From: Candidatus Omnitrophota bacterium
GTDB lineage: Bacteria; Omnitrophota; Gorgyraeia; Zapsychrales; Zapsychraceae
Assembly: GCA_018812705.1 (NCBI GenBank)
Contig: JAHJCZ010000097.1
Coordinates: 840-64,839, forward strand
DNA length: 64,000 nucleotides
Direction: 5' to 3'
A program made the translations under genes and the position numbers. Position 1 is the first letter of the stretch. Each line of letters begins with the position of its first letter. Positions 1 to 32,531 of the stretch are shown here, in pieces. The notes beneath the pieces were generated by a model. It saw nothing but the letters and a program-made list of their open reading frames with translations. It did not search any database and had not been told where the DNA came from.

Positions 1-3000
1 AGCCAGCATTCACTATTGTCAGCAGCGCTTCCATCTGAAACAGACTTATCCATCATTAAAGCCCCGCTGTAGATCTTCCTAACTCCTCCGCCCATATCAG
101 GGAAAGTATTAATGTATGCGGCCGGAACATTGGCTGAAGCCGGAGGGTTATCAACCATCAAATCCCCACAACAGCTTGTAACAGCTCCGCAATCCTTAGG
201 ACAGCTTGTTTGGTGCTCCCCAATCAAATTATCACAAATGCCATCACCGCAAAAACCTGTTGGAGCTGGACAGTCCTGAGGACATGACACAGCATCCTCT
301 CCCCCTGCACAAACACCATCTGGACAAAGGGGACAATCCTGCCAACAGGAGCCTGAATTTTCCCCGACTTCACAAGCCCCATTAGGACAAACAGCCGCCC
401 CTCCGCCGGAACAGACCCTGCCAAGCGGGTTAAAATCAAAAGCCGTTCCCGTCTGTGGCCTTAAAGGATGGTTAAATCTAAAATCCCAGATCGGCACACC
501 ATTAGGGAAGAATGTCCTGCCCAAGTTGGTCTGGTCTTGATCTACCCTAGTAACACGAGCCTTTACAGTACCAACGTAGTTAATAATAAAGAAACATCTC
601 TTTGTTCCCCAGTTGTGCGTCTCAGTTTTAATGCTCGGCCATTCTTGAGGTCCCGTCTGCGAAGGATTACACCTTCCCTCACATCTTCCAGGAGTCCTGA
701 CATCAACCCGTACAACGTGCCAAGACCCAGAGCCGACTCCCATCGTTTCATTAAGAGGCGGGCTTTGCCAATAATAGACAGCGGCACTTGGCAAACCATT
801 GTCCGTACCATCCTCATAACTAATTCTGTACTGAATAATGTCTTGCGCAGGACCATTTAAGAAATCACTAAATTTGTTCTCAGCTGTTTGAAAAACTTCT
901 TCAATATTTTTAATTTCGGGTATTCTGTTCTCAAGGAAATTCATTCTGACCGTAAATTTTGCAACTTGGTTTTCAGCCTCTTGGTAGCTCTGATCTACCA
1001 GGTCTTTGTACCCTCCAGGAGCAACATCGGCACAAGAACCACCCGCAGTAACAATGGCATCAAGTATTCCCTGTCTAAAACCAGGCGCTGCTCCCGCATC
1101 AGTTGCCCCGTCCCACCAAAAAGAACAAGACCCCGCATTCGCAAGCTCCGGAACCGGTACCTCTGGAACGCTCGGCACCCAAGGTGACATTGGCGCAGCC
1201 ATTCCGAAGAAATTGATCAGAATGTTATGGTCAATGATAAAAGCTGGGTCTAGTGGTCCCGTTCTCGGATCATGAGCACAAAATGCCTCACAATTAACCG
1301 CACCGATCGGGCCGTCTCCGACAACAGGGTTAAACAAAGAGTTTGCACAATTGATAAACATTTGACTATCCACTGCATCCATTGTTCCTGGATAAGGCGG
1401 AACCGCAGCAGCAGCTAATAAAACGGCTGTTCTAAAATTAGTAGCAGCCCCTCCTGAACACCAGTTACTACATTCTACATTACATTGAGTAATCCAGTTG
1501 ACAATAGGATTTACCCATACAGGAACAGTGTACGGAGCAGCATTAAGGCCATAAGGATCAGTACCTCCTGGGAAAAGGCTTCCGCAAACAGTCTGACAAT
1601 CTGCAACGGACATGTCAGGATCGTCCGGTGCCGGTGGTACAAGAGTAGAAACCCCTAGAGTGTCCCTACAATTTTCAAGAGCTAGCACTACGGCATCATT
1701 GCTCGCTTGAAAAGCAATTGAATCAAAACCTGGAACTAATGACCTCGGCAAGAACTCACAATTAGCTTCATTACAATAATCCCAACATCCTTTAAACTTC
1801 TGAGCATTACCCGTTGCAACACCAGGGTCAGCACCTCCGGTTATTATTGAAACTGGCAGATATTCATTAAAATCAAGGTCGCCATCAACATCAGCTAGAT
1901 CCACTGCCAACAAAATCCTCTGATCGTTAATATTGTAATCAAGACAAGCGGCAACGTCTTCAATATCTCCGGTCACTCCGTTGACATTACTATCAAAAGT
2001 GTTTTCTTCTTTATCATGCTCTTCATGGGCGCCTGCAAAAGTAGCACATCCAGGCATTGGAACACACCACGCATCTCCACACAAGCCGCCTAAACCTACT
2101 TGTGCAACATGGCTAACCCTTAGCAAGTCCACCCTATCCCTAATTTCAGCGAGAGCCGTCAACCATTGCCACAAAATACCCTCTGTTGGGTTAGCAGCTG
2201 TTCCATAACAGTTGTAACATGCCGGGACAGATGTCCTGTCGGCAGGAGGATTTAAAGGCTCTATCCACGGGGCAAGATCTTCATACCAGGAATCAAAGTT
2301 ATTGATCAGCGATTTTTTATCTTTCATTAATAATGTCGTACCGAACCGCAAAAATTCAGAAAGCCCATAATAAACGTCCTCTAAAACATCTTCCGGCCAG
2401 TTAGCTGCAGGCTGAGCTAAAGCGTCCCCGCAAGCACAGTCAGCAGGCACTGTCTGATTGCTTCCATCTCCATCACCCCAATCATTGTCGCATGTCCAAT
2501 CTGCAGGATTATCCGGATCGCCAGCGGGAACAACAAGATGCACCCCGTTTTCATCCAACTGCTCACAAGGCATTTTGCAGCATGGACAGTCATAGGTCAA
2601 GACATTGCCGTTACCGTCATCATCTGTAGTACAGGCAATCCAATTACCAAGATCATCAAGTTCCCAACAGAGACATGGCGCACATACCCCTCCCTCTGAC
2701 TTGTCACAATTCCCAAAATACGGCCACTCTGCATCACTGGCTACATCTCCATCTGAACAAAATCTATCAGAACCTTGCTTCCAGAAACCTAAAGCGGGAT
2801 TGACAACAAGATCATCAAAAGCATCCTGGGCGCATGCACCAGCTGCAGCAATGACGTCGTTAGGAATTCTTATCCTGTCAACAGCGATCGGTGGATCTGT
2901 TGCAACTGCACTGTTTTGTGCTTGTGAAGGAACGACCCATGTCGTATCATAAGTAAGTGTAGCTGGAGCACGAGGCAGTCCTACTACTGACAATCTATTG

Positions 3001-4691
3001 GCTTCCAACTCAGGATGCTCCAATGGCCCCGCAGGTACACAAGCAGGATTTGCATCCCAGAAGCAGTTGTTTGCTGCTGAGGCACCAATACTTAGGTCCC
3101 AGCCCCAGTTAGCCATTCTCCAAAAAACAGGGTAAACGCCTTTCTTGCCATCATCGCCGTCAGGAGCATACCCTTCAAAAAAGCCAGTGACATCTTCCTC
3201 AATAAAAGAGTTAGTATCCCCTACTTGAACAATCAGGCTTCTGTCACCGGGGTTCTTGCGATAAAGCCTGTGTTCATCATCCCTTCCGATCTGTTCCCGA
3301 AGAGACCTGTAACAATCTTGTGGACAATAGTATGGGTTATCTGCGCCATCATCTCCTGCAGAGCCTTCGTTGTTTCTTGGATGATCTTCCCACACGACAT
3401 CTGCCACACCAAGATTGATTTGATCACAAGTTGCAGAAAGAGCCCCACAACAATCATTCGGGTCTGCTTGAAGACAGAAGGTCACATTTGGAACTGATGG
3501 GTCATTATTGTAATTATTCTCAACACCTGTATCAAAAATCCATTTGTATTGATTACCATTTACGATGTTGCCGTTAGAGAATGGCGCCACTTGCTGGGCA
3601 GGCGCCCCGCACGAAACAGACTCTCCACATTGACCTGCCCCAATATCACAACAAACGGGCCTTAAAGTAACATCTGTTCCTGAAAGAGGATCAACCGCGC
3701 CAACAGGAGCACAACAAAAATTTGCCTCAGAAAGCGTTGGCGTAACCGTACATGCCGGATGCGCCGCACCAACAGTAGTACACACACCATTAACAAATAG
3801 CGGGTCAGACAATCCCCACGCCTCATCGACTAGATCAGGGTTACCGTCTCCGTCATTATCAGCATGACAATCTGACGCATAAAGAGCATCATACAGGCAA
3901 TCGCCATGCATAAAATCATCTAAAGCCCTAATAAATGCAAGGATCTCAGTACCATCCGGAGTTTGAATTCTGTTGAGTCTTTGGGTGTAATAAAAACCAA
4001 ATCTTGAAACCATATCATTTGGCACAAGCCCCGTAAAACCCCAATTTCTATCAGTATCCATATCATAAACATCGGCAACCTCACCCGGATCAGTAATAAC
4101 TGTTTGAAGGGCTGTCCTAACACCACTTTCGACAAATTGATTCTTAAGCGACATCGTCTCACCGATTATCTTGTTCCACATGCTAGTAATGCCAGGCTGA
4201 ACTACCGTTGCCTGCATGACAACTGATGCAATAGAAAGAATTATCGCAACAATCGCAAAGGCAATGATATACCCTGCCACCGCAGCAGACCCCCCACTAG
4301 TTACAGGGGCCAGAATAATAGCGATGACCGCAATAATGACAACAATGATCATGGAAATAATTGCCGTAAAAAGACTGGTCTTATCACAAACCTGAAGACT
4401 TCCCTTAAGGTTCTCTTTAACAAGCTTTTGAGCATAACTTGCCATTTGAGAAGCAAGTACACTAGCGGTTTTTTCAGCAGCCATTGAAGTCAGCGTCTTT
4501 GCGCCGCTAAGCCGTCCAAGATTTAAAGTAACCGCATAAAAAATAAGGGCGACTGCTGTCATTATTATCAGTATGATCGCAACTTGCCCTTTAGAATCAG
4601 AGGCTCTTCCTAAAGAACTCCTCTTTTTGGTTAAGGAGCAATTCAGTTTCTTTTTAAGCGCCAAGATGTGCTTGTTTATTCTCTGTATCAA
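1..4691 (-). CDS. Giant secreted Cys-rich TadG-like pseudopilin/adhesin-like protein. 3-prime end lies beyond window position 1; at least 1563 codons are in the window.
   Basis: Manual reverse-complement translation is open from a stop at 4731-4733 down to position 1. Candidate TTG start at 4691-4689 follows an AAGAGG RBS; an alternative TTG lies at 4664. The N-terminus (KKKLNCSLTKKRSSLGRASDSKGQVAIILIIMTAVALIFYAV) resembles a TadE/TadG-type class III signal plus TM. The body has many Cys and acidic Ca-binding-like motifs (DNDGDGNPD, DDDGNGN, DWGDGDG). Three C-terminal 20-aa Cys repeats are encoded at about 196-420 (CPNGACEVGENSGSCWQDCP, CPDGVCAGGEDAVSCPQDCP, CGDGICDNLIGEHQTSCPKDCG). It is absent from the ORF track, probably because no stop codon falls inside the window. 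Confidence 0.7.
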   Translation of the reverse strand, partial: MIQRINKHILALKKKLNCSLTKKRSSLGRASDSKGQVAIILIIMTAVALIFYAVTLNLGRLSGAKTLTSMAAEKTASVLASQMASYAQKLVKENLKGSLQVCDKTSLFTAIISMIIVVIIAVIAIILAPVTSGGSAAVAGYIIAFAIVAIILSIASVVMQATVVQPGITSMWNKIIGETMSLKNQFVESGVRTALQTVITDPGEVADVYDMDTDRNWGFTGLVPNDMVSRFGFYYTQRLNRIQTPDGTEILAFIRALDDFMHGDCLYDALYASDCHADNDGDGNPDLVDEAWGLSDPLFVNGVCTTVGAAHPACTVTPTLSEANFCCAPVGAVDPLSGTDVTLRPVCCDIGAGQCGESVSCGAPAQQVAPFSNGNIVNGNQYKWIFDTGVENNYNNDPSVPNVTFCLQADPNDCCGALSATCDQINLGVADVVWEDHPRNNEGSAGDDGADNPYYCPQDCYRSLREQIGRDDEHRLYRKNPGDRSLIVQVGDTNSFIEEDVTGFFEGYAPDGDDGKKGVYPVFWRMANWGWDLSIGASAANNCFWDANPACVPAGPLEHPELEANRLSVVGLPRAPATLTYDTTWVVPSQAQNSAVATDPPIAVDRIRIPNDVIAAAGACAQDAFDDLVVNPALGFWKQGSDRFCSDGDVASDAEWPYFGNCDKSEGGVCAPCLCWELDDLGNWIACTTDDDGNGNVLTYDCPCCKMPCEQLDENGVHLVVPAGDPDNPADWTCDNDWGDGDGSNQTVPADCACGDALAQPAANWPEDVLEDVYYGLSEFLRFGTTLLMKDKKSLINNFDSWYEDLAPWIEPLNPPADRTSVPACYNCYGTAANPTEGILWQWLTALAEIRDRVDLLRVSHVAQVGLGGLCGDAWCVPMPGCATFAGAHEEHDKEENTFDSNVNGVTGDIEDVAACLDYNINDQRILLAVDLADVDGDLDFNEYLPVSIITGGADPGVATGNAQKFKGCWDYCNEANCEFLPRSLVPGFDSIAFQASNDAVVLALENCRDTLGVSTLVPPAPDDPDMSVADCQTVCGSLFPGGTDPYGLNAAPYTVPVWVNPIVNWITQCNVECSNWCSGGAATNFRTAVLLAAAAVPPYPGTMDAVDSQMFINCANSLFNPVVGDGPIGAVNCEAFCAHDPRTGPLDPAFIIDHNILINFFGMAAPMSPWVPSVPEVPVPELANAGSCSFWWDGATDAGAAPGFRQGILDAIVTAGGSCADVAPGGYKDLVDQSYQEAENQVAKFTVRMNFLENRIPEIKNIEEVFQTAENKFSDFLNGPAQDIIQYRISYEDGTDNGLPSAAVYYWQSPPLNETMGVGSGSWHVVRVDVRTPGRCEGRCNPSQTGPQEWPSIKTETHNWGTKRCFFIINYVGTVKARVTRVDQDQTNLGRTFFPNGVPIWDFRFNHPLRPQTGTAFDFNPLGRVCSGGGAAVCPNGACEVGENSGSCWQDCPLCPDGVCAGGEDAVSCPQDCPAPTGFCGDGICDNLIGEHQTSCPKDCGAVTSCCGDLMVDNPPASANVPAAYINTFPDMGGGVRKIYSGALMMDKSVSDGSAADNSECW

Positions 4692-4828
4692 TTCACATAC
4701 CTCTTTAAAAACTATTTTTTCTATTCTACATCAAAAACAAATCTTTTAAAAAGCTTTAATTCTTTTTCTATCTCTCTGTTCCAACACTGTCTTTCTATCA
4801 TTAACCAACAACAAAACATCCAGAACTA

Positions 4829-5068
4829 TTATGGCATCCAAATCGCGTTCAGCGGGATAGGCTCGTAAAAATACGTATCCAGCTGCTGCCCAATCGACCC
4901 TCCCGACCTTAACAAATCATGATGCGCCTGTCTTCTTGCAACAGGGTCCCTTGAAACCCATCCCATGATCTGTACCATGCTCCACAGCATCAAAAGAATA
5001 ATGAACATACAGAAGGTAAATTCTATCAAAACCTGACCCTTAGATCTTTTTGCCTTTTTTAAAAACAT
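4829..5068 (-). CDS. TadE-like minor pseudopilin (79 aa)
   Basis: N-terminal KRSKGQVLIEFTFCMFIILLML matches the TadE/Flp-type prepilin motif (G then xxxxE[FY]) followed by a hydrophobic helix. It lies between two other pseudopilin-like genes. Confidence 0.55.
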   Translation of the reverse strand: MFLKKAKRSKGQVLIEFTFCMFIILLMLWSMVQIMGWVSRDPVARRQAHHDLLRSGGSIGQQLDTYFYEPIPLNAIWMP

Positions 5069-5101
5069 TGACTTTTTCCCTTTTTTCTCTGTTCAAAGTA
5101 C

Positions 5102-6439
5102 TTATCGCATAAATTCAACGTACGGTTCGTCGGTTGTATCAGTAACCCATCTACGTCCACGTCTATCCGCTATTCTGCTCCTAATAAAAATGTACCTGTC
5201 TCTAATTGCCATGCAGGTAAGAGGCGTATTCCCGCCAAAACATTCTTGCCGCATGTTAACACAAACCTCAATGGGATTTGGCACGCTAGTATCGTCCCCA
5301 ACAAAAGGCGGGACCGTTCGATCAGCATTACAGAACCTCCCGGGTGTAAAATTGCTTAACAGTACCTCCCTTTGAATAATATCAACCTGATCTTTCTTTT
5401 TGGCTGTTCTAATAAACTGTCTTCCTGGAGAGGTCGCATAAAGACGTCCTTCTTCTATTAATGCATAAGTGCCTTCTTCTCCCGGCCTTTGCCCTCTTAA
5501 GAATGTAAAGACCTCCGTATCTCTTTGAAGACCTGGCCGTTCACCGGGGTCCCCTTCTTCCCAAGTACCATCAATATCTCCAGCACCATAATCAATAGCA
5601 TGTATTGAAGTAACAACTCCGTTTGCATCTGAAGTTACGCTGTAAACCGTTTCTTCCATGTAATCTCCATCAACATCATAAGACACCTGTGATGTTTCCA
5701 TCGCAACGTTTCCAGGAAGAAGCGTTCCTCCTCCAGCTTTAGTTTCAAAAGCATATCTGATTTTCCATTGCCAAGAGAAATTGGACCTCATTGCTACTGG
5801 CACCTCGCTCGAGTCTCCATCTCTGTCAAGATCAAAACACGCGTCACAGCCTGCATCCCAATCATCTATGCCAGGGTGATTAGGAATTTTCTCGTAAACA
5901 GCAACGCAGCCAACAATAGCGCCCGATGCTAATCTTGCACAATTGTCTTGCCATGTAGGATGTCCATCGACTAACCCTCCAATGTTTGTAAAACTGGCGC
6001 TTGAAAAAGGAAAATGTTGACCATTTATCCAATAGTCCGTAACTGATAAACTGAAATTTTCATTGGAATCAATGTTAAGAAATAGGTTTCTGCTGTGCGT
6101 GCCTGATCCTGACAGCATGTAAGGAACTCTATCGACTGTACCATATTTCGCGCTTGAGGCAGTTAGCCTGTCTTCGATCAAAACAACCGCAGCCGAATTT
6201 CTTGAAGCATTATTATCGCCATGACTTCCCATCTGTCCTGAAGTGTACATGTACGACATTCTCATTGCCATTCTCATTGCCTTCAAAGCCTGGCCCTGCT
6301 GATATCCATAACCAAGCGCGCTTCGAACAATAAGACCCATCGTAAAAATAAATATTGATCCAAAAACCGCCAATTCCATTGCGGTTTGGCCCGATTCTTT
6401 GACCAGCTTAAAATAACGTTTCTTTCTAAATAAGTTCAT
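5102..6439 (-). CDS. TadE/TadF-like pseudopilin with large C-terminal extracellular domain (445 aa)
   Basis: N-terminus ESGQTAMELAVFGSIFIFTMGLIV fits a TadE-like prepilin. The C-terminal domain is rich in Asp/Gly motifs (DLDRDGDSSE, DVDGDYMEE, GAGDIDGTWEEGDPGE) suggestive of Ca binding. Confidence 0.6.
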   Translation of the reverse strand: MNLFRKKRYFKLVKESGQTAMELAVFGSIFIFTMGLIVRSALGYGYQQGQALKAMRMAMRMSYMYTSGQMGSHGDNNASRNSAAVVLIEDRLTASSAKYGTVDRVPYMLSGSGTHSRNLFLNIDSNENFSLSVTDYWINGQHFPFSSASFTNIGGLVDGHPTWQDNCARLASGAIVGCVAVYEKIPNHPGIDDWDAGCDACFDLDRDGDSSEVPVAMRSNFSWQWKIRYAFETKAGGGTLLPGNVAMETSQVSYDVDGDYMEETVYSVTSDANGVVTSIHAIDYGAGDIDGTWEEGDPGERPGLQRDTEVFTFLRGQRPGEEGTYALIEEGRLYATSPGRQFIRTAKKKDQVDIIQREVLLSNFTPGRFCNADRTVPPFVGDDTSVPNPIEVCVNMRQECFGGNTPLTCMAIRDRYIFIRSRIADRRGRRWVTDTTDEPYVEFMR

Positions 6440-6483
6440 ATCGCCCCTAAAACCATCAGCTTCTGAAAACCTTGAAAATAAAC

Positions 6484-6798
6484 TTAATATGCCCCAGAGG
6501 AAACATATCCAGATTTTGTTTCAACAACATTTGTCATATCTCTTCGAGATGTCCACCAACCTTCAGATGTGTTTAAAGAAATGATCTGCGTGTCCGTGTT
6601 TGAAACTATCCTATGGACGACCATTGTGTTTCCCGTTCTAGGATCATACTGTTCTCCTAGTTCGTCAACTGCAGTTTTCCATCTTCCCTGCAATCCTCTT
6701 TTAAAATAATTACCTATTGATAAAAAAGCTGCAAGAATAACTGTCATCAAGACCAGAAACTCCATTGATGTTTGCCCTTTTTTTATTAGTTTAAACAT
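6484..6798 (-). CDS. Flp-family type IVb pilin, extended (104 aa)
   Basis: KKGQTSMEFLVLMTVILAAFLS carries the Flp prepilin motif (G/xxxxE[YF] plus hydrophobic helix). It shares the YFKRGLQGRWKTAVDELGEQ block with its paralogues. Confidence 0.7.
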   Translation of the reverse strand: MFKLIKKGQTSMEFLVLMTVILAAFLSIGNYFKRGLQGRWKTAVDELGEQYDPRTGNTMVVHRIVSNTDTQIISLNTSEGWWTSRRDMTNVVETKSGYVSSGAY

Positions 6799-6831
6799 AA
6801 TATCTCCTGTTTCAATAGCAACTTCACTTTT

Positions 6832-7182
6832 TTAATCGTTCTCTTGAAAACCTAAACCTGTTTCAGTCGTTGATTCAGAATGCATCCGATCATTATAGTA
6901 ATGAGTTACGACGCCAGCACTTTCTCCTCTTGTTGTTTCTGTTGCCGCGTCAACATCAACAAAAGCATTTACCATGAACCCTTCTTCTATGTCAAAAATC
7001 TGATCCGCATTCCTTTGAGTTCCAATTTGATCGGCAACTGTCTTTATCATTCCCTGCGTGCCTCTTTTAAGGAACGTCCCCATATTAAAAAATATAACCG
7101 TAACCATTCCGACTATTAATGAGTACTCCAGAATGCTTTGAGCCTTATTATTTTTCCAAAATTTCAAATTTACCTTAAACAT
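6832..7182 (-). CDS. Flp-family pilin paralogue, extended (116 aa)
   Basis: NNKAQSILEYSLIVGMVTVIFF Flp motif, plus the conserved FLKRGTQGMIKTVADQIGTQ block. Confidence 0.7.
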   Translation of the reverse strand: MFKVNLKFWKNNKAQSILEYSLIVGMVTVIFFNMGTFLKRGTQGMIKTVADQIGTQRNADQIFDIEEGFMVNAFVDVDAATETTRGESAGVVTHYYNDRMHSESTTETGLGFQEND

Positions 7183-7203
7183 TTTTCCCTCTAAACTAGC
7201 GTA

Positions 7204-7587
7204 CTATTCATATTCCCTATCTGCTTCCCTTGGAGGCTTTGTCACGCTTGTTGTCATTATTCTTGAAAGATCATCATATTCCATTCTGTAAACGCCGCTA
7301 GTGCCTCCCTCGGCAAGAGAAGTTCTTGATCTAAGGCTACGATAAGTTTCTGAATCAGTGTTCTGATAATAAGGCTCATAATGAAAGAATATGTTGCCAT
7401 TGAAGAAACCTGCTGATTGATTTCTTGTGAGCCTGACCATTGAATCTCTGGCATCATAAATTCTTCCCTGAACCACCCTTTGAAAATATGTACTCATTGC
7501 TGTTATTACTCCGATAGCAACAAAAAAAACTATAACATATTCCCCCATAACCGCCTGAGCTTTATTATTTTTAATAATTCTTAGCAT
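7204..7587 (-). CDS. Flp-family pilin paralogue, extended (127 aa)
   Basis: NNKAQAVMGEYVIVFFVAIGVITAM Flp motif. It shares YEPYYQNTDSETY with the 8281..8643 paralogue. Confidence 0.65.
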   Translation of the reverse strand: MLRIIKNNKAQAVMGEYVIVFFVAIGVITAMSTYFQRVVQGRIYDARDSMVRLTRNQSAGFFNGNIFFHYEPYYQNTDSETYRSLRSRTSLAEGGTSGVYRMEYDDLSRIMTTSVTKPPREADREYE

Positions 7588-7780
7588 AAAAAATGCTTCC
7601 CCTTAAAAATTTTAATAGTCATATAATAAGTATACATTATTTTTATCTGATTGAATAGAGTAGGTATCTTTTTTTTGGATTGATAACTTTAACAGTACCA
7701 TAAACTTAAAGAAATCCCTTTTATTGTTTTTGCACAATTTAACAAAAAACCAACTCAAAAATAAAAAACACAGAATCTTT

Positions 7781-7836
7781 TTTTTACGCAAAAAAAAATC
7801 CGGCTTGCCGAAAAACTATTTCTCGACAAACCGGAT
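7781..7836 (-). terminator. Rho-independent terminator on the minus strand between the flp sub-operons
   Basis: Read on the minus strand: ATCCGGTTTG, 19-nt loop, CAAGCCGGAT (10-bp stem with one G-U), then TTTTTTTT. It sits just downstream of the pilin gene ending at 7881. Confidence 0.6.
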
Positions 7837-7880
7837 CTATGTTTCAAACTAAGAACCTATTTTTTACAAAACACCGTTTA

Positions 7881-8249: not shown

Positions 8250-8280
8250 TTCTTATGTTACTAACTGATCAGGTCTACTA

Positions 8281-9076: not shown

Positions 9077-9268
9077 TTATTGTGATGCTTTGAATTCTTC
9101 TTGTATTACCTGCTGGGTAGCCTGAACTGACCTATACACGTAGGTACTCATAGCGACAACCGCTACGGAAATAAGAGCTGCGACCATGGCATATTCAATT
9201 AGATTTTGACCTTTATGATTCCAATTTTCCACTTTTTTGTTCCTCGCCATACCGCAACTACCTAACAT
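9077..9268 (-). CDS. Flp-family pilin (about 57 aa from the internal Met at about 9250)
   Basis: MARNKKVENWNHKGQNLIEYAMVAALISVAVVAM; classic short Flp. Confidence 0.7.
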   Translation of the reverse strand: MLGSCGMARNKKVENWNHKGQNLIEYAMVAALISVAVVAMSTYVYRSVQATQQVIQEEFKASQ

Positions 9269-9655
9269 GTCTAACAGATAACATTTGTCCCATTCTTACT
9301 AAACACTGAATCGAATTCGCGGGACTCTATTGCCGAACTTTTCGGCTCCTCTGCTTTTGACCACCGTGTCTCCGGTCTATCCCAAAAACAGAAGAATAAA
9401 ACACCTTAATGGTGTATTAACTCGAAACTATTCTGTCAAAAAACGTTACATTAATATTGGACATGAAAATAACACAAACGTCTTTCTATCCAATACTTAA
9501 AAAAGTATATCATAATAATAGCTTAAGTGTCAATAGAACCTGCTTTTATTTTTTAATTTTCAAAAAATGCAAAAAAACCCCTTTCACTATTAGTAAAGCA
9601 AAGCCAGCAAAGGCTTTGTGAAAATAGCTTTTTATTTGTTTTCCCGTCAAACATC

Positions 9656-11671
9656 CTAAGCTTTTATTTTTTGAGCACTTACAAAAAAACCCTTGCCCTC
9701 CTTTGTTACCAGATGCCTATCGTTTACTCTATTAATAGCAAATTCCAAAACCTCGAGAAAATTATACCGCTCGGGAATCATAATTGTCACAATTAATCGG
9801 TTGGGATGTTCCTGTACAAAGCCCTTTAATCCATAAAATATTGGCACCATAGTTTTTATGTCAACTGCTCCTTTTTGCTTAGGAAAATATTTATCTAAAC
9901 AATACTCATGAAGGGTTAGGATGTAGTCATCAAAAATATCTCCAAGATTCTCAAATCTTCTTTCTACAAAATCCCCAACATGGTCTTCGTGTTGGCTTTT
10001 AATAGGCTCTAGCTTGCTAATAGCATTGCTTGTTTCTTCCTTATTATAGCTCTGCTTAAATGCGCTTGGCCAACGATTTAAATAATTTGCAATAATAGTT
10101 TCAGCTTTTTCTGCAAACATATTAGTTAAAAGGGCTATTTGAGGCATCTTGTTCTTTTCTTTACCTAAAAACACCAATTTTAAAGACTTTTCCTCATTAA
10201 AATGCTTAGGAATGTTAAAAACATCATTCAAAAAGCTCGAAAATGGAACATTTTTTTCAGAATAGTACAAAATACTGTCTCTTTGGCTGTCATAATAGGA
10301 AAAATCGACAAAATCGACAAATTTTTGAATTAATTCCTTAAAAATTTCCTGATAAGGCCTAAAACCAACAATAAACGAGCGCTTAATTGAAGGAATAAGC
10401 GTAAATTCGGTAATTATGTCTTGATTTTCACTTAAAACTTCAATCTTTCGTATTTTTCTGCCAGGAATGTCAAAACAAGCAGCAACTAGCATTGAAAGAT
10501 CCTTTTTGTTAATGCCTTTTTCCCTTAAAACATCCATTACTAGGCACTCATTGTTGCTGATCAATGTTTTTGAAAGAATCGTCATTGCGCTACTTACAGA
10601 CGCAAACAATTCCTTTTGAACTAAATCTCTCCAAAGAGACCTCAGTTGAGCATCAAGTACAATGCTAGTAGAATCCTCAAAGATGACATTAAAAGCACAG
10701 ATTTTGCTTAAAGCCTGTTCCTTTTCATTAAGATATTCCAACTGCAGTTGATTGGAAAAGTCAATCTTCTGAGTCCACCCAAAAAGATTTTCTCTTCCTG
10801 GATACCCTTTAAAACCATTTAATCTCCATAAGGCGTCATTCTTTGAATTTTCAATAGTCTCAACCGATTGCATATTAAACGCTTTAAGGAATAGCAAACT
10901 TGAACAAATATTATTAAAATTCTCTAAACCCATTCCTTTTGAATTTTTTCCAAAAAGATCACCCAGAAGGTTTTCACCCGACATGTCGATCTGAGCAGCT
11001 TTTAAGAACACAACTCCCGCATTATCATACAAGTTACTATTTTTTCTTTCTTTCCCTTTATTTTCTCTCGCAATTTTTACATCATAAAGGAATTGTTCCT
11101 CGTCGAAGAATTTAGGACCAACAGGAACAACATATTCCTTCTGATATTGACTTGATAGAGCTGATTGCTCTTCTTTAATTGCTTTGTTTTCTTCTGCAAA
11201 TACTCTCTCTTCATTCTTCACTCTTTGTTCATCATAAAAGATCTTGCCCTTGCGTTTTCTTCTCTCGTGCTCCTGAAGATCAATAGAGAGCTTTTCAAGA
11301 GAAAAGACTGCCGCTTCTTTTTTTATCTCAAGGAGTTCATTAGGAACACCTTTTTTCTGTTCCTCGTTTTCTGCGGAAACCTTTTTATCAAAAGTAAAAC
11401 CAAGGCTTGAAATGCTATCTAACAATTGTTGTTTCTTTTCTGGCGGGATCTGAAATTTTTTAGAGGTTGCTTTTTTCTGGACTCTTCTTCCTACTGAACT
11501 GCTTAGCATAGTATTTTTCAAAACAGAATTCACCGAAGACTTTGATACCTTAATTTCAAATTTCTTGCTTGTCTGCTCTGATAATTGTCGACAGCTAATT
11601 AAGGGCTCTTCCTTCTTTTTGTTTATAATAAAATCAAACACTTCTTTTTTTAGCTTGTGTACTACTCCCAT
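9656..11671 (-). CDS. Hypothetical 671-aa Lys/Glu-rich protein with an HTH-like N-terminus, embedded in the Tad locus
   Basis: Long ORF with an N-terminal PLISCRQLSEQTSKKFEIKVSKSSVNSVLKN helix-turn-helix-like segment and K/E-rich low-complexity coiled-coil regions. It has no TM segments and I recognise no family. Confidence 0.45.
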   Translation of the reverse strand: MGVVHKLKKEVFDFIINKKKEEPLISCRQLSEQTSKKFEIKVSKSSVNSVLKNTMLSSSVGRRVQKKATSKKFQIPPEKKQQLLDSISSLGFTFDKKVSAENEEQKKGVPNELLEIKKEAAVFSLEKLSIDLQEHERRKRKGKIFYDEQRVKNEERVFAEENKAIKEEQSALSSQYQKEYVVPVGPKFFDEEQFLYDVKIARENKGKERKNSNLYDNAGVVFLKAAQIDMSGENLLGDLFGKNSKGMGLENFNNICSSLLFLKAFNMQSVETIENSKNDALWRLNGFKGYPGRENLFGWTQKIDFSNQLQLEYLNEKEQALSKICAFNVIFEDSTSIVLDAQLRSLWRDLVQKELFASVSSAMTILSKTLISNNECLVMDVLREKGINKKDLSMLVAACFDIPGRKIRKIEVLSENQDIITEFTLIPSIKRSFIVGFRPYQEIFKELIQKFVDFVDFSYYDSQRDSILYYSEKNVPFSSFLNDVFNIPKHFNEEKSLKLVFLGKEKNKMPQIALLTNMFAEKAETIIANYLNRWPSAFKQSYNKEETSNAISKLEPIKSQHEDHVGDFVERRFENLGDIFDDYILTLHEYCLDKYFPKQKGAVDIKTMVPIFYGLKGFVQEHPNRLIVTIMIPERYNFLEVLEFAINRVNDRHLVTKEGKGFFVSAQKIKA

Positions 11672-11706
11672 AGAAACGACCTCTTAGAAGATTTTGTTAA
11701 CATGAA

Positions 11707-11823
11707 AATGTCCATTCTGAACTATAAGATATATTATTTTTCCAGATTGGACATTGTTACATTTTTTAGTATAGCACAATACTTAAATAAACAAGCTAAA
11801 ATATTAACTTTTTTTGGACATTG
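11707..11823. promoter_or_regulatory. Three copies of a TGGACATT motif in the promoter region upstream of the 671-aa gene (candidate operator)
   Basis: AATGGACATT (reverse orientation) at 11707-11716 and TTGGACATTG at 11747-11756 and 11814-11823. A fourth copy, TTGGACATG, lies at 9457-9465 upstream of the last flp gene. Confidence 0.4.
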
Positions 11824-11824
11824 A

Positions 11825-12169
11825 TTAGCTTGAGATCTCTATCTGATCACCAATAGAAATCCCTGCGCTGAGGATAGCGCTAGAGGGAAGCTCTACAACA
11901 TAGCTTGATCTAAAATATATACGGCTAAGCTGAAAAGGCCGAATATCGCTGACTAAACCAACAACAACATTCTCTTTGCTGACAAAAACAACGTCAATAG
12001 CAAATTTCATAAAAAACATATGAATAGAATTACACCTTGTAATAACAAGAGCCTCTCCTTCTGAAAAAGATTCACGATTCAACAATCCAACCATTCTAGT
12101 TAAAAAACTATCTGCGACCTTGGCCTTATCGGCAATTATATTCTGTTTTGTTTTGTTAAGTATTTTCAA
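11825..12169 (-). CDS. DUF192 (COG1430) family protein
   Basis: GLLNRESFSEGEALVITRCNSIHMFFMKFAIDVVFVSKENVVVG matches the DUF192 core. Confidence 0.6.
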   Translation of the reverse strand: MKILNKTKQNIIADKAKVADSFLTRMVGLLNRESFSEGEALVITRCNSIHMFFMKFAIDVVFVSKENVVVGLVSDIRPFQLSRIYFRSSYVVELPSSAILSAGISIGDQIEISS

Positions 12170-12187
12170 TTATTGAAAGGATTATAG

Positions 12188-12505
12188 CTACTCTGCGGGT
12201 TTTGGTGGCAGAGCATTAGTTTTATCATTTTTCTCTGTAGCAGGCGCTTGATCTTTTATCGCCTCAGGAGCCAGTATCACAACCTCAGGAACTTCTATTT
12301 TCTCTTCAGGATTAACATAAATAGTCCGTTTATCAAAAATACTCTTTTCAATTTTTAACCCCCGAGTAACAAAATCATCGAAGCTTGTAGGGACATACCC
12401 TGTGGCTTCAAAATCTCCAATAACCCTGCCGTACGCATCGATCCCATTTGATTGTAAAGAAAAATATCTTTTAATATCAATTGGTGGTCTTCGTCCATTC
12501 CGCAA
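12188..12505 (-). pseudogene. Frameshifted C-terminal segment of the TadA/CpaF ATPase
   Basis: The overlapping frame encodes IDAYGRVIGDFEATGYVPTSFDDFVTRGL, which matches the conserved CpaF C-terminus. The main frame instead ends in a non-homologous tail. A 1-nt indel in the AAA run near 12440-12450 would join the two frames. Confidence 0.55.
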
Positions 12506-14484
12506 GTTTCAGAAATCTGTGTGACCTTTCGAGTTCCATCTGAAAAACGATTGATCTGAACGATAATATCAATCGCTGAGGCGATCATTTCATTAATAGC
12601 TCTAACAGGTAATTCAATACCACTTAAAAGAATCATAGAGTGCATACGAGTAACAACATCTCTTGTAGTATTTGCGTGCAATGTGGTCAAGGACCCGTCG
12701 TGCCCTGTATTCATAGCCTGAAGCATGTCCAAAACCTCAGGTCCGCGACACTCCCCGATAACTATGCGGTCAGGTCGCATTCTCAAACTATTAGTAAACA
12801 AATCCCTAATAGTAACTTCACCTTTTCCTTCAATATTTCTAGGTCGAGATTCCAGTCTACCACAATGGCTCTTTTTTAGCCTCAACTCAGCAGCATCCTC
12901 AATAGTGATAATCCTTTCATTATCAGGGATAAACTCGGAGACAACATTCAGTAATGTCGTTTTACCAGCACCTGTTCCTCCAGAAACAATAATATTCTTG
13001 CGGCCAATAACAGCACAATTTAAAAACAAAACCATCTCTTTTGTCACGCTGTGAAACTTGTTGAGCAAGTCATCCGTATTAAGTCTTTCAGCTCCAAACT
13101 TTCTGATAGTTATCATTGGCCCTCTCAACGAAAGTGGCGGAATAATAGCATTAATTCTTGATCCATCCGGCAAACGAGCGTCAACCATCGGAGTCGACTC
13201 ATCAATTCTTCTTCCTAAAGGAGCAATTATTCTGTCAATAATCGCCCTCATCTTGTCATCCGAAACAAAACTATAATCTGTAAGGACTAGTTTTCCCTTC
13301 TTCTCAACATATATCTCATCTCTACAATTTACCATAATATCAGTTATATCTTGATCCGCTAATAGGTCTTCTAATGGCCCTAAACCTAAGGCTTCATTAA
13401 CGATATCTCTAACCAATCGCACTCTCTCTTCGTGGGAAGATATCTTTCCGCCTGCTTCTTCCGTAAGAAGCGTCCCGACAACTCCTTCCGCCATTTTTTT
13501 AACTTTATGGATGGATTCCGGGTCACTTAAAGCCTCAAGAGAAATGCCTTCCTTGTTCAACCTGTCAACCAGCTTGAGATGAATTTTTCTCTTTAAAATG
13601 CTAATCTCATCTTCCTGAGAAGTATATGCTTTGCCTGAAGGAGCCGTACCCATTTGCTGAGCAATACCATATTTAGCCCAAAATGCTCCTGGACTAGGAA
13701 GATCTTCTTTGTTTCTTATCTTCTCAACATCCATTGCAGGGACAAAATTACTTTCTTTGCGGAAAGAATCTACTAGCTTAATAAAAGATTCTCCAACATG
13801 GCTCTTTGGATTATCAATAACACAAGGAATCCCCCTGTTAAGAGCAATGCCCACTGCCTTTCCATCGGATGGAACATGTCCAAAAATCTCACAAGTCAGA
13901 GCAGACTTAACTTCTTGCCAAGCAACACTTCCACGACTTTCAGACCTGTTCAAAAGCAGCTTGATCATTTTCATCGGAAACTGCAGGCTCTGCAGAACAT
14001 CCAAGCACCACTTTATTTGATAAACAGCCAAAATATCCGGCGTTGCCACTAATAAAATAAGGTTAGAATAGTCAAATACTGTAATAAGCGGTTCATGGAA
14101 AGCTTTCCCTGCATCAATAAGAATATAGTCATATACTTCAGATATTTTTCTAAGATAGGGTTTTATATTATCTGGCGTGATCAAACTGATTTGACGGGTA
14201 TTCTTAACTGCCGCCATAAAGTCCAATCCACAAGTATGTCGTGCAGAAAATCTTCTAATAACGGCATGATCTGTTACTGCGTCTATTTGCGAAAGAACGT
14301 CAACGATCGAGTTCTTTGGAGACAGGTTCATTGTTCGCGCCATATCCTGTCCTGCCTGAAAATCCATGTCGATCAAAAGCACTTTATATTTAGCAAGAGC
14401 CAGGGCTGTGGCCATATTAACAGCGACGAAAGTTTTGCCAACCCCACCTTTGTTACTAAAAATAGTTATTATTTTTGCACTCAT
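12355..14484 (-). CDS. Fused TadZ/CpaE-like (ParA/MinD-fold) ATPase and TadA/CpaF secretion ATPase; the C-terminus continues in another frame
   Basis: N-terminal IITIFSNKGGVGKTFVAVNMATALA deviant Walker A of the ParA/MinD family. The C-terminal half has CpaF hallmarks: Walker A GGTGAGKTTLLNV, IITIEDAAEL, GHDGSLTTLHANT, RFSDGTRKVTQISE. Confidence 0.8.
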   Translation of the reverse strand: MSAKIITIFSNKGGVGKTFVAVNMATALALAKYKVLLIDMDFQAGQDMARTMNLSPKNSIVDVLSQIDAVTDHAVIRRFSARHTCGLDFMAAVKNTRQISLITPDNIKPYLRKISEVYDYILIDAGKAFHEPLITVFDYSNLILLVATPDILAVYQIKWCLDVLQSLQFPMKMIKLLLNRSESRGSVAWQEVKSALTCEIFGHVPSDGKAVGIALNRGIPCVIDNPKSHVGESFIKLVDSFRKESNFVPAMDVEKIRNKEDLPSPGAFWAKYGIAQQMGTAPSGKAYTSQEDEISILKRKIHLKLVDRLNKEGISLEALSDPESIHKVKKMAEGVVGTLLTEEAGGKISSHEERVRLVRDIVNEALGLGPLEDLLADQDITDIMVNCRDEIYVEKKGKLVLTDYSFVSDDKMRAIIDRIIAPLGRRIDESTPMVDARLPDGSRINAIIPPLSLRGPMITIRKFGAERLNTDDLLNKFHSVTKEMVLFLNCAVIGRKNIIVSGGTGAGKTTLLNVVSEFIPDNERIITIEDAAELRLKKSHCGRLESRPRNIEGKGEVTIRDLFTNSLRMRPDRIVIGECRGPEVLDMLQAMNTGHDGSLTTLHANTTRDVVTRMHSMILLSGIELPVRAINEMIASAIDIIVQINRFSDGTRKVTQISETCGMDEDHQLILKDIFLYNQMGSMRTAGLLEILKPQGMSLQASMILLLGG

Positions 14485-14540
14485 TTTTGCACCAGGGAAA
14501 CAACTTTTATCTTTTTACAAATTTTTAATAGGCGTGTCAA

Positions 14541-16193
14541 TTATTTCTTAAAGCTGTAAACAATTGGAACAGTAATATTCAATTCCTGAAGGTCTACATC
14601 TGAAGGAAACCCTGCGTACGGCGCAATTCTTTTGGCCGCTCTTAGGGCACTTTCATCCATAACCTCATGTCCTGATGATTCTTGAATTAAGGCATATGCA
14701 AGTGTTCCGTCTTTTAATATAAGCATATTCATCCTAACAGTTCCTTCCCATCCATATCTTTTTGCCTCTGGAGGGTAGAGAATTGTTTTGGAAATCTGCT
14801 TCTGAACATTTCTTACATACTCAGTCATGTTTTTTGGTATTCCCAAGTAATAAGGAACAGCCGCGGAAGACGAGACTTTTTGCTTATATATTGCAGTTGT
14901 CTTATATTCTTCAACCGTTTCCTCTTTTTCCTCTTCAGGATTGTTACGGTTTCTTTCTAATATAGTTGGCGTCATTGAGATAACTAGCTCTTTATCTGTA
15001 TCTGAAGGATTCGTTCCATGAGACCTGAAAAGCATCCCAATAATCGGTATTTGCCCCATAAAAGGAACTATTCTCGTGCTGGAACCTCTGTTCTCTTTAA
15101 TTAAACCAGCAAGAACCATCGTCTGCCTATCATTTAAAAGAACGTGAGTTGTTGTTGTTTCTGTAAAGAAAGATGTTTCGTTTCCTGTTCCAGAAGCGAC
15201 ATCACTGATCTCAACGTTTAACTCAATATCAATTTTATCTTTTATTACTTCCGGCGTTATCGTTAACCCAATACCATACTCTTTAAAAGAAACATTTTCT
15301 TGTGTTCCTTCTGCGGAGGAGGTTGTTGTCTTAATAGGAATTTCCCCACCAACTAAAAAACTCGCTTCTTCACCGCTCATAACGACTACTTTTGGTCTTG
15401 AAAGAACCCTTGCTTCCCCTTTTTCTAATAAAGCTTTAACAGTTGCAGTTAAAGCTGACGTTCTGCTAAAATCTCCAATCTTAAAAAAGTCACCTATTGA
15501 TCCGTCCATCGCAGGCATGTTTTCAGGATAGGTCAAAGATACGCCACTCGACCCAGAGGACCAATCTATACCTAAACTTTTTGTAAGCGTGGTATTTAAT
15601 TCTGTCATTTGCATGTCCACTTGAATAAGATCCTGAATTTCTTCCTTCCTTACAAGTTTCATAACAAGATCAGCATATCCATCCAATATTGAATCAAGCA
15701 TCTCTTCGTTTTTCTCTGAAACATCCCCAGTGACAAATATCTTACCTTCTCTTTTATTAGGCTCTAATTTTATTCCCTCAATTCTTGCCTTTTTTAAAAG
15801 TGTGTCGATCCTTTGAATAGCAGTATCAAGCATTCCCATGTCCGCAGCTTGAACATTAACGAAAACCATTCTTTTTCCTGCATCATCCCAAACAAAAAGT
15901 ATAGTTTGTCCAGGTTGTTTCGCAATAAGCAAAATCTCCTGGTCATCTGCTTCAACAATATCAGCAATATCTGGATTTGTAATAGAAAGCCTTGTCATGT
16001 TTGAGACCTTAGCTATAGTCAGTTCTCCGACAACCATATAAATCTCGTTTTCATTCACTGAATCAAGATTTTTATAAATGTCATCCAATGCATTAGCTTG
16101 TGCCAATGAAGATGCGAAAAGAATGACTACTGCCGTAACAATAGCTCCTTTCACTGCGAACTTTATTTTTTCAAAAATTCTTTTATTATCCAT
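14541..16193 (-). CDS. RcpA/CpaC-type Flp pilus secretin fused to a C-terminal TonB-C domain
   Basis: Signal peptide; Pilus_form_N-like block (IYMVVGELTIAKVSNMTRLSITNPDIADIV...TILFVWDDAG); secretin core; C-terminal YPPEAKRYGWEGTVRMNMLILKDGTLAYALIQESSGHEVMDESALRAAKRIAPYAGFP, a clear TonB C-terminal domain signature. Confidence 0.75.
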   Translation of the reverse strand: MDNKRIFEKIKFAVKGAIVTAVVILFASSLAQANALDDIYKNLDSVNENEIYMVVGELTIAKVSNMTRLSITNPDIADIVEADDQEILLIAKQPGQTILFVWDDAGKRMVFVNVQAADMGMLDTAIQRIDTLLKKARIEGIKLEPNKREGKIFVTGDVSEKNEEMLDSILDGYADLVMKLVRKEEIQDLIQVDMQMTELNTTLTKSLGIDWSSGSSGVSLTYPENMPAMDGSIGDFFKIGDFSRTSALTATVKALLEKGEARVLSRPKVVVMSGEEASFLVGGEIPIKTTTSSAEGTQENVSFKEYGIGLTITPEVIKDKIDIELNVEISDVASGTGNETSFFTETTTTHVLLNDRQTMVLAGLIKENRGSSTRIVPFMGQIPIIGMLFRSHGTNPSDTDKELVISMTPTILERNRNNPEEEKEETVEEYKTTAIYKQKVSSSAAVPYYLGIPKNMTEYVRNVQKQISKTILYPPEAKRYGWEGTVRMNMLILKDGTLAYALIQESSGHEVMDESALRAAKRIAPYAGFPSDVDLQELNITVPIVYSFKK

Positions 16194-16431
16194 GGTTAAT
16201 ATCTCTTACTTTCTTTAAAACAAGATTTCTTGTTTGGATTGATTTGTAATTAAAAACAATTAAGAACCTTGAATCAAAGACGATCGTCCCTTTGGCTCTA
16301 AGATGTCACATAAAACACAACATAGAAACAAATCTCAAACTATAATAGAAAAGAAACACCAGCAACAATCTGCAAAGTAACTCGCGAAAGAATCAAACAA
16401 AAAAGCACTCTACAGCATCAATACTAAACTT

Positions 16432-17277
16432 CTAAAAATTAGACTCTGCTCCTGATTTAAAAATCTGTATATAAGGACGAACTTCGTCTTCCTCTTCATC
16501 TGCTTCAAAGATATTCGCCTTCTTTTGCGGGACCATCAATTCTGTTCCTTGGTGATCCATAACATATTCAGCTAAAGTATCCCAAGATGCAATTTGAAGC
16601 AACTGCAATCCACCGTCTGTTGGTGGCCTTAAAGACAGTTGTAATTTTCCATTTGCCTGAGCAAATGCAATCAATCCAGACTCTTCCGGACTAATCGCAA
16701 CTGTTATGTTAAGGGACCTGGCCTTTTGCTGTGCTTCATATGCAGGAGCGCTTCCAAGAGGCTTAAAATTAGTTCCAACTGCCAGCACTTGAATATTCTG
16801 GAATAAAACGGTAGTCACATCTTTTAAAGCTTTTGAGTCTTCCGAGTCATCAGGTATCTTTATTTCACCAATAATATCAACAAAGTCGCCTGGATTAATA
16901 AGACCTCCAACCGCTGAAAGAGAATCAACTAAAATAGTAACTGCTCTTTTTCCAGGAGGTGTTCTTACTGAAAAAGAATCCATCTGAACAACTGGCTGCG
17001 CTTTTTCAGTGGTAGCTTGTGTTGCTGCTCCTGGCTTATATTGGCTTTGCTTTGTCTCCACCTTCTTGATTTCTTCACGCTGTCTTTTGATCTCGCTTCT
17101 TAAAACCTCTATTTCTTTAGCAAAACCAGCATTTTGTTTGCCATAATCTCTTGCCAAAGCTTTTGTTTGAGCCTTAATATTGTTTTGGACATATTGGCTA
17201 GTTAAAAACGCAGCAACCAAGCCAAGCCCTATCGCGATAAGAATAATGACAAACTGTTTTTTGTTTTCAATGTTCAT
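16432..17277 (-). CDS. cpaB: Flp pilus assembly protein CpaB/RcpC. The start is probably the internal Met with a GGAGGG RBS.
   Basis: N-terminal TM (FVIILIAIGLGLVAAFL). RAVTILVDSLSAVGGLINPGDFVDIIG matches the CpaB C-terminal domain. Confidence 0.7.
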   Translation of the reverse strand: MNIENKKQFVIILIAIGLGLVAAFLTSQYVQNNIKAQTKALARDYGKQNAGFAKEIEVLRSEIKRQREEIKKVETKQSQYKPGAATQATTEKAQPVVQMDSFSVRTPPGKRAVTILVDSLSAVGGLINPGDFVDIIGEIKIPDDSEDSKALKDVTTVLFQNIQVLAVGTNFKPLGSAPAYEAQQKARSLNITVAISPEESGLIAFAQANGKLQLSLRPPTDGGLQLLQIASWDTLAEYVMDHQGTELMVPQKKANIFEADEEEDEVRPYIQIFKSGAESNF

Positions 17278-17390
17278 TGTACCCTCCGCACTGTTACCCA
17301 AAAACAATTTAAAAAACCACTCGCTCTTACAATACAAGAATTTTTATTTTTGGAAATAACAGAAGCTTGTTTTTCAATTGGCCAAAAAAT

Positions 17391-26458: not shown

Positions 26459-29259
<2,801 letters not shown>

Positions 29260-32530: not shown

Positions 32531-32531
32531 C

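Follow-up and report, generated by a model that had tools for sequence, protein, structure and literature searches.

A conserved origin-proximal locus of Omnitrophota that very likely encodes a Tad-type pilus

The 64-kb window analysed here (the whole stretch of DNA examined, from contig JAHJCZ010000097.1 of a Candidatus Omnitrophota bacterium) carries at positions 1-18326, on the minus strand, what is very likely all but the distal end of a conserved, origin-proximal Tad-type (type IVc) pilus locus of the Omnitrophota. All long open reading frames (ORFs) from 18326 down to position 1 are on the minus strand. They encode, in order, a peptidyl-prolyl isomerase (PPIase), a CpaB/RcpC-like protein, a secretin with a TonB_C domain, a MinD/ParA-like domain fused to a CpaF-type ATPase, a DUF192 protein, a 671-aa protein (U671), seven pilins (pil1 to pil7), the proteins T445 and T79 and a giant protein. 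An earlier reading made from the DNA letters (the sequence-only reading) had listed these genes, all on one strand, within 1-17337; ORF calls and Pfam searches identified every one of them, with the PPIase gene outside that span and the others inside. Related loci were collected through look-ups of genomic context and by scanning genomes with the 671-aa family as seed, giving 140 species-level loci, of which 80 were kept and their ORFs mapped to the window proteins. Two further sequences are closest to the window: L001 (GCA_018825605.1, JAHJEE010000194.1), with 99.97% identity over 14.3 kb, and L002, a Logan contig obtained by exact-protein look-up, which is 100% identical and provides 819 bases beyond window position 1.

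The PPIase gene (17391-18326) is the first conserved gene of the locus. It lies directly before cpaB in essentially every related locus, and this adjacency is kept even where the genes further upstream vary. The protein has a SurA_N plus Rotamase_2 organization (Pfam Rotamase_2: 65.5 bits, SurA_N_2: 30 bits) and is probably a lipoprotein, based on a lipobox (FLGC) read near its N-terminus. It is the only lipoprotein among the proteins scanned from 1-18.3 kb, none of which matches a TPR/TadD-type pilotin. The CpaB/RcpC-like periplasmic protein (16432-17337; true start probably the ATG at 17277) has the conserved domain RcpC (84.2 bits; cut-off 28.8), a single N-terminal transmembrane (TM) segment and a coiled-coil stretch. 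The secretin (550 aa, 14541-16193) combines three Pfam domains in one ORF, as the sequence-only reading had proposed: T2SS-T3SS_pil_N (46.8 bits), Secretin (133 bits) and TonB_C (55.9 bits). The TonB_C domain occupies residues ~472-547 (NCBIfam tonB_Cterm: 52.1 bits), and the closest solved relative of the secretin in the PDB is RcpA (8odn). The DUF192 protein (114 aa, 11825-12169; Pfam DUF192: 62 bits) follows the ATPase gene in all related loci.

In the protein encoded at 12188-14484, a MinD/ParA-like domain (residues 1-250) precedes a CpaF/TadA ATPase to which it is fused. In this window the gene is divided between two ORFs (12355-14484 and 12188-12505), as discussed below. The first of these has the conserved domains AAA_31/CbiA/ParA at residues 4-240 and T2SSE at residues 366-646 (200 bits). 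Among PDB sequences (phmmer), the ATPase is most similar to CpaF (373 bits, E-value: 2e-110), followed by archaeal GspE (2oap; 133 bits) and FlaI (119 bits); no other ATPase clade, VirB11 included, scores above 133 bits. The best solved relatives of the N-terminal domain are MinD and ParA (55-59 bits), and this domain opens directly with a canonical Walker A motif (KGGVGKT), without a preceding receiver-like domain. TadZ, the ParA/MinD-superfamily protein of Tad systems, starts with a receiver-like domain and has a Walker A motif of atypical sequence. At least 119 clusters of full-length homologues share the MinD/ParA-CpaF architecture (63-93% identity). All of the clusters that are named to organism belong to the Omnitrophota, and one hydrothermal-vent metagenome entry names no organism. 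The closest homologue (93% identity) is from Omnitrophica WOR_2 GWF2_38_59, which a supplement of Seymour et al. 2023 (PMC10066038) lists as 'Zapsychrus unditaenarius' (Velamenicoccia, Zapsychrales, Zapsychraceae). This similarity places the window organism close to 'Zapsychrus' within the Velamenicoccia.

Seven small ORFs within 6484-9268 encode the pilins. In each, a basic leader ending in Gly or Ala precedes the motif Q-x-x-x-E-[YF], after which comes a hydrophobic helix. All seven have Q+1 and E+5, and they are paralogues (BLASTP E-values as low as 7e-19). Pil1 (57 aa, 9077-9250; gene prediction in L001 likewise gives 57 aa) has the classic form of a short Flp prepilin, with the sequence KG/QNLIEY (the slash marks the end of the leader) and is a candidate for the major pilin. 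Pil2 (76 aa, 8703-8933) is a class-III-signal pilin. Pil3 (120 aa, 8281-8643; Ala at -1), pil4 (109 aa, 7881-8210), pil5 (127 aa, 7204-7587), pil6 (116 aa, 6832-7182) and pil7 (104 aa, 6484-6798) are long for Flp proteins (104-127 aa). Hidden Markov model (HMM) support for these proteins is marginal. Pil2 alone passes a Pfam cut-off (Class_IIIsignal: 31.4 bits; cut-off 23.7), pil7 (Class_IIIsignal: 23.4 bits) and pil1 (Flp_Fap: 28.4 bits; cut-off 32.2) fall just below, and pil4 (Class_IIIsignal E-value: 0.009) and pil6 (Flp_Fap E-value: 0.006) match at lower significance. Pil6 is also recognized by the motif, pil4 is paralogous to pil7 (E-value: 7e-19), and pil3 and pil5 are assigned by motif and paralogy. 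The array of seven Flp pilins described in the sequence-only reading is thus borne out by the invariant Q+1 and E+5 and by paralogy, with one member above the Pfam cut-off. An eighth Flp-like pilin, pil8 (121 aa), is encoded after the giant gene, 198-563 bases beyond window position 1 (L002:6960-7325). It has eight Cys residues in its C-terminal half, while pil1 to pil7 have none, and its orthologues are found in most related loci, directly before tadB.

Two putative regulatory features flank pil1 to pil4. A promoter-like site (TTGACA-18-TATACT with an extended TG) at 9504-9533, on the minus strand, lies in the 386-bp gap upstream of pil1; it is a pattern match only (11/12 in a consensus scan). 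Between pil4 and pil5, at 7796-7838 (minus strand), there is a predicted, very strong intrinsic terminator or attenuator with a 20-bp stem and a T-run. A similar hairpin, with a dG of about -18 to -31 kcal/mol, and a T-run occur in the pil4-pil5 gap of approximately 20 related loci. Because of this conservation, the array looks as if it is split by the terminator into two expression classes.

The pilin genes are followed by three genes for larger or pseudopilin-like proteins. T445 (445 aa, 5102-6439) has the N-terminus SG/QTAMELAVFG, one TM segment, eight Cys residues and conserved DxDxDG-like sites. None of its 31 orthologues has a Pfam match, and its sole profile link to pseudopilins is to the N-terminus of the T79 family (hhalign; 53% probability, E-value: 1.3e-4). 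It is a candidate minor pilin at the TadF position. T79 (79 aa, 4829-5068) is a TadE-like pseudopilin (KG/QVLIEF) with a Pfam TadE match below the cut-off (E-value: 0.0057); TadE is matched by 10 of 36 orthologues, with E-values as low as 1.2e-4. The giant protein (1,599 aa) is encoded at 1-4691, with the last 36 codons beyond position 1, and is 79% identical to its orthologue in the related locus L009. It has a pseudopilin-like N-terminal TM segment that lacks Glu+5, two to three more TM segments and an exterior region of ~1,400 aa that is rich in Cys (75 Cys, 4.7%) and in D, N and G and ends in three CxDGxC...C..DC repeats. Its N-terminus weakly matches PF13400 in three of 34 orthologues, and no NCBIfam or vWA match was found. 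The giant is a candidate TadG-like anchor or adhesin, where 'TadG-like' denotes an analogy of position. The sequence-only reading had called these proteins two TadE-like pseudopilins and a TadG-like protein, and their N-termini are indeed pseudopilin-like. The giant gene (window 1-4000) has a GC content of ~47%, against ~37% in the rest of the window. Horizontal acquisition was considered and rejected: GC at third codon positions is 0.36, like that of the neighbouring genes, so the excess is due to an amino acid composition rich in Gly, Ala, Pro, Cys and Asp.

U671 (9656-11671) is a soluble protein without TM segments. It consists of a conserved N-terminal Tc3-like helix-turn-helix (HTH; weak match, E-value: 8e-4), a disordered K/E-rich linker and an alpha/beta body of ~450 aa of unknown fold. 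The N-terminal ~90 residues are highly conserved. Beyond the weak HTH there is no sequence match in Pfam, NCBIfam or the PDB, and a Foldseek search of the PDB gave no matches. The family comprises 923 clusters at 50% identity (E-value: 1e-3 or lower), all without annotation. The most likely role of U671 is to regulate this locus specifically by binding DNA, and it may derive from a transposase. In the related loci L048 and L067 its gene runs against the direction of the other locus genes, which is easier to reconcile with a regulator transcribed on its own than with a structural subunit. The possibility that U671 is an inserted insertion sequence transposase that displaced tadBC was rejected. 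The gene is syntenic in 140 species loci, and the protein has one near-invariant acidic residue and no conserved DDE triad, so it is not a mobile element; in addition, tadBC are found further downstream. U671 was also discarded as a substitute platform protein, as it has no TM segment and relatives have genuine T2SSF genes; the latter also argue against such a role for the three-TM N-terminus of the giant.

No T2SSF or A24 peptidase gene was found in 1-18.3 kb or elsewhere in the window, in agreement with the sequence-only reading, which had noted no TadB, TadC or TadV in its 17 kb and had suggested that platform and peptidase genes may lie beyond position 1. For the platform, synteny backs this suggestion. 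In relatives, the giant gene and pil8 are followed by genes for a TadB-position protein (281-299 aa) and then a TadC-position protein (285-301 aa), both polytopic, and the five of these proteins that were checked are all T2SSF proteins (Pfam E-values of 1e-14 to 1e-18). Using HMMs built from these proteins, tadB was found in 33 related loci, including 21 of the 24 that extend at least 600 bases past the giant gene or pil8; one of the three exceptions is an orientation artefact. In these loci TadB has 285 aa and TadC ~294 aa. Two further contigs, found via TadB homologues and belonging to other species, show the same order (L090-L092 also carry TadB/TadC after the giant and pil8). By synteny, then, tadB and tadC are predicted to lie downstream of pil8 in the window organism. 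A metagenome scan with pil8 gave one distant match, and the list of TadB homologues contained no entry attributable to the window genome.

The order (gyrA ... nitrilase-LDH)-PPIase-CpaB-secretin-fused ATPase-DUF192-U671-pil1 to pil7-T445-T79-giant-pil8 recurs across the related loci. Extended through TadB-TadC, it recurs in tens of GTDB species, with synteny to more than 50 Omnitrophota loci. As the full ATPase fusion is present in 51 of the 56 related loci of at least 12 kb and a TonB_C-like tail in 61 of the 61 related secretins longer than 450 aa, both fusions are, judged by gene content, the norm for the phylum, and the arrangement is an ordinary one for Omnitrophota. Parts of it have been outlined before. 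Seymour et al. 2023 (PMC10066038) report Tad complexes in most Velamenicoccia and an expressed 'complete' Tad locus in a V. archaeovorus LiM co-culture, at 12.4-29.8 kb of the chromosome (CP019384.1 12382-29832), a position that agrees with that of the present locus, 12-32 kb from dnaA. West-Roberts et al. 2023 (bioRxiv 10.1101/2023.11.21.568195) describe a phylum-wide, conserved locus resembling a type II secretion system (T2SS) upstream of Omnitrophota giant genes, containing gspD/E/F homologues, rcpC, a Rotamase_2 PPIase and small class-III-signal genes. The window locus resembles these published loci in its secretin, T2SSE ATPase, rcpC, Rotamase_2 PPIase and class-III-signal genes, in phylum and class, in its origin-proximal position and in gene-for-gene synteny with dozens of metagenome-assembled genomes (MAGs). 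There is no difference in kind; the present instance is cut before pil8, tadB and tadC, and its ATPase gene is frameshifted. The accessible parts of the two papers do not describe the fusions, DUF192, U671 or the terminator split of the pilin array, and a literature search found no paper describing the fusions, DUF192 or U671. The sequence-only reading had proposed a distinct, possibly undescribed variant of the Tad system. This proposal is not upheld, as comparison of gene neighbourhoods shows an arrangement common in a named clade, the Omnitrophota, and outlined by Seymour et al. 2023 and West-Roberts et al. 2023.

Judged by its components, the core of the locus is that of a Tad system and not of a T2SS or type IVa pilus: it has a CpaF-type ATPase, an RcpA-type secretin, RcpC, Flp/class-III leaders and a split platform. 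The Tad/Flp assignment of the sequence-only reading, its CpaB and DUF192 calls and the departures from textbook tad loci that it listed (two fusions, long pilins, a pilin array and a giant terminal protein) all hold. The tad locus of Aggregatibacter has the organization flp-tadV-rcpCAB-tadZABCDEFG, and its counterpart in Caulobacter is cpa. In common with these canonical systems, the present locus has a CpaF/TadA ATPase, an RcpA-type secretin, RcpC/CpaB, Flp-type prepilins (Gly or Ala, then xxxxEY), pseudopilin-like proteins and, after them, a large protein at the TadG position that lacks Glu+5 and, in relatives, separate TadB and TadC proteins. In contrast to them, the genes for pilins and pseudopilins lie after that of the ATPase and before tadBC; the ParA-like partner is part of the ATPase protein, is MinD-like and lacks a receiver-like domain; the secretin carries TonB_C; RcpB, a TadD pilotin and TadV are absent in cis; and PPIase, DUF192 and U671 are additional conserved components. 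Of the eight pilin paralogues, six have 104-127 aa, and the TadG-position protein has 1,599 aa and is Cys-rich, without a vWA match. Other systems share some of these features. Seymour et al. 2023 (PMC10066038) place the TadB and TadC proteins of Velamenicoccia with those of Bdellovibrionales in phylogenies and propose a part in prey attachment or entry for the systems of both groups; the Velamenicoccia secretin, according to the same study, is unrelated to the RcpA of Bdellovibrionales. Archaeal adhesive pili of the Epd-like or class-III-signal type, from which Tad is proposed to descend (Denise et al. 2019, PMC6668835), likewise have a secondary P-loop ATPase partnering the main ATPase and a two-gene platform, and the pilins described here match the archaeal Class_IIIsignal domain better than Flp_Fap. 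The present system differs from these archaeal pili in that it is that of a diderm, with a secretin and RcpC, and in that its ATPase is nearest to bacterial CpaF, far above archaeal GspE and FlaI. It differs from a T2SS in its leaders (Q+1, not G/F), in the absence of GspC, GspL and GspM matches among the locus proteins and in the platform, which is split into TadB and TadC in relatives; the NCBIfam GspE model gives only 41 bits (cut-off 630).

A mechanism for pilus assembly can be proposed from these components. Ten proteins (pil1 to pil8, T79 and T445) have leaders of the type [GA]/Q-x-x-x-E-[YF], which would be cleaved by an A24 peptidase encoded elsewhere. Assembly would be driven by the CpaF-type hexameric ATPase, which has a built-in MinD/ParA-like domain instead of a separate TadZ, acting with a TadB/TadC platform that is encoded right after the giant and pil8 in relatives and presumably also in this genome. 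The fibre would exit past CpaB/RcpC and the RcpA-type secretin, which its TonB_C domain probably anchors or places within the envelope. The lipoprotein PPIase probably serves as a chaperone in the periplasm, in the place that the pilotin TadD has in canonical systems. Pil1 to pil4, including the classic short Flp pil1, would form a strongly expressed unit between the promoter-like site and the terminator and supply the fibre body, with pil5 to pil7, T445 and T79 present in small amounts as minor pilins for priming or capping it. Because the giant lacks Glu+5, as does TadG, it would stay anchored in the membrane and present a large disulfide-rich surface. U671, with its highly conserved HTH, would most likely regulate the locus. 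The epibiotic or predatory lifestyle reported for the class suggests that the pilus may serve in attachment to host or prey cells.

Several observations weigh against this interpretation. From sequence, a pilus and a pseudopilus used for secretion are inseparable. HMM support for the TadE, TadF and TadG assignments is weak (T79; the giant) or absent (T445). The role of U671 is deduced from its HTH and from the position of its gene, and in two loci that gene is on the opposite strand. TadZ structures, such as that of E. rectale TadZ, are absent among the PDB matches of the ATPase N-terminal domain (E-value: 1e-3 or lower). TadZ orthology of the MinD/ParA-like domain is therefore unproven, and it is probably best called a TadZ-position, functional analogue; of the fused TadZ-TadA in the sequence-only reading, the ParA/MinD-CpaF fusion stands, the TadZ identity is not established, and the window lacks a single intact ORF. 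The 819 bases past position 1 contain the end of the giant gene, pil8 and 255 bases without a tadB start, although the pil8-tadB spacer is 260 bases in L017, such that a missing start is not evidence of absence. The A24 motif (G[GAMS]GD[VAILF]K) was found in no frame of the window and in no ORF of more than 120 aa in 88 related loci, and no locus protein has a Pfam A24 match. The prepilin peptidase would be encoded elsewhere, if at all.

The state of the ATPase gene bears on whether a pilus could be made at all. Its frame is broken at ~12432-12446, and the last ~85 residues are shifted into the overlapping ORF 12188-12505. Relative to L001, in which the ATPase is intact (765 aa), the break consists of a 1-nt deletion (GGGG to GGG) and two substitutions within ~20 nt. 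These change Lys to Met/Asn and Asp to Tyr in the sequence KGID.DGR, and the motif GID.DGR is conserved in the top-ranked homologues inspected. If the frameshift is real, the system would be dead in this strain and the locus would be a recently inactivated pseudogene cluster; L001 is the one independent assembly over the site, so that one assembly stands against one. Inactivation nevertheless appears quite unlikely. Outside the break site the other 14.2 kb differ from L001 by one mismatch, all other ORFs are intact, and an intact allele is present in a public MAG of the same population. A cluster of three changes in 20 nt beside homopolymer runs, where the DNA is identical otherwise, is what a local consensus error typically looks like, and a local assembly or consensus error is more likely than biology or a true pseudogene. 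A programmed -1 frameshift was rejected: the site lacks a slippery heptamer, and the near-identical contig, which differs here at three positions, keeps the reading frame.

The same genes could instead serve T2SS-like secretion, in which the secretin is the exit for a downstream giant 'archaeovorin'-type protein, or for other effectors, pushed out by a short piston of pilins, and no long fibre is formed. The name T2SS-like and the conserved position upstream of giant genes, as given by West-Roberts et al. 2023, favour this explanation, as does the ORF following tadC in L090 (3272-9699). Its product has 2,142 aa or more and weakly matches C39 peptidase, and its N-terminus (a TM segment and '...FLPEQVAQA...') is homologous to those of post-tadC ORFs in four other loci (L050:20830-21884, L055:13964-15584, L075:20111-21266 and L085:21177-22091); this ORF is probably the start of the giant genes of West-Roberts et al. 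2023. Eight pilin paralogues with three larger pseudopilin-like proteins also resemble the major-plus-minor pseudopilin sets of a T2SS. However, all core parts are phylogenetically Tad, the leaders have Q+1 and not F+1, TadB and TadC are separate proteins, GspC/L/M homologues are lacking among the locus proteins, and pil1 is a short Flp of the fibre-forming kind. Moreover, the adjacency to giant genes is seen in relatives and not in this genome, and the giant proteins, which have many TM segments and SecA-like domains of their own (West-Roberts et al. 2023), may not need such a route. On balance a secretion function is unlikely. Far less probable still is a Flp pilus for DNA uptake, comparable to the Tad-like system on which Micrococcus luteus depends for natural transformation. 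Transformation can be mediated by Flp/Tad-like systems (PMC4322843), and an HTH protein such as U671 is compatible with DNA handling; but no ComEA, ComEC or DprA gene is present in the locus or the 64-kb window, the related loci give no hint of competence, and the giant Cys-rich surface protein and the conserved link to giant adhesin/hydrolase genes point to cell-cell contact. We give a similarly small chance as to secretion to a further version, a mechanistically distinct, Tad-derived contact apparatus. It would have a polar-landmark ATPase built into the motor, a TonB_C-anchored secretin, a PPIase in place of the pilotin and a multi-pilin fibre capped or anchored by the 1,599-aa disulfide-rich protein, would be coupled to the deployment of neighbouring giant predation proteins and would be controlled by U671, a member of a large family confined to the phylum (~900 clusters) that may be a domesticated, catalytically dead DDE-transposase-like protein binding DNA. 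A Tad-type pilus locus of the kind usual in Omnitrophota thus remains the preferred interpretation.

The rest of the window includes the chromosomal origin region (28963-34543), with dnaA (30584-31918), dnaN, gyrB and gyrA on the minus strand and yidC, parA and parB on the plus strand. The GC skew changes sign, with a cumulative minimum near 31-32 kb, and two near-consensus DnaA boxes (32030-32049) are found in the 980-bp gap between dnaA and yidC; enrichment of DnaA boxes near 32 kb over the window is not significant (23 matches, 17 expected). Between the housekeeping genes and gyrA, the minus-strand gene at 21926-23551 encodes a secreted protein of 541 aa, whose orthologue in L006 is annotated as FGE-sulfatase (PF03781); the gene is syntenic in the closest relative and not in more distant ones. 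A 6S RNA (48456-48608, plus strand; Rfam RF00013, 55 bits, above the gathering score) lies between pheT and a gene for a RarA/MgsA-like AAA ATPase (recombination factor) identified by eye. Five tRNA genes are present at 39105-39388 (plus), 23783-23856 (minus) and 55476-55546 (plus), three of them clustered just upstream of thrS.

The Omnitrophota are uncultured, ultra-small bacteria that are thought to be predators or parasites. The locus described here is probably their main cell-contact machine, and it lies next to the largest genes known in bacteria. The window adds no new kind of system, and public databases already contain its sequence. What the comparison contributes is a list of parts that is clearer than the outlines published so far: the two fusions, DUF192 and the PPIase as fixed members, a terminator within the pilin array, tadBC after the giant gene and U671 as a fixed component. 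These parts provide targets for work on Omnitrophota predation or on the evolution of Tad systems.

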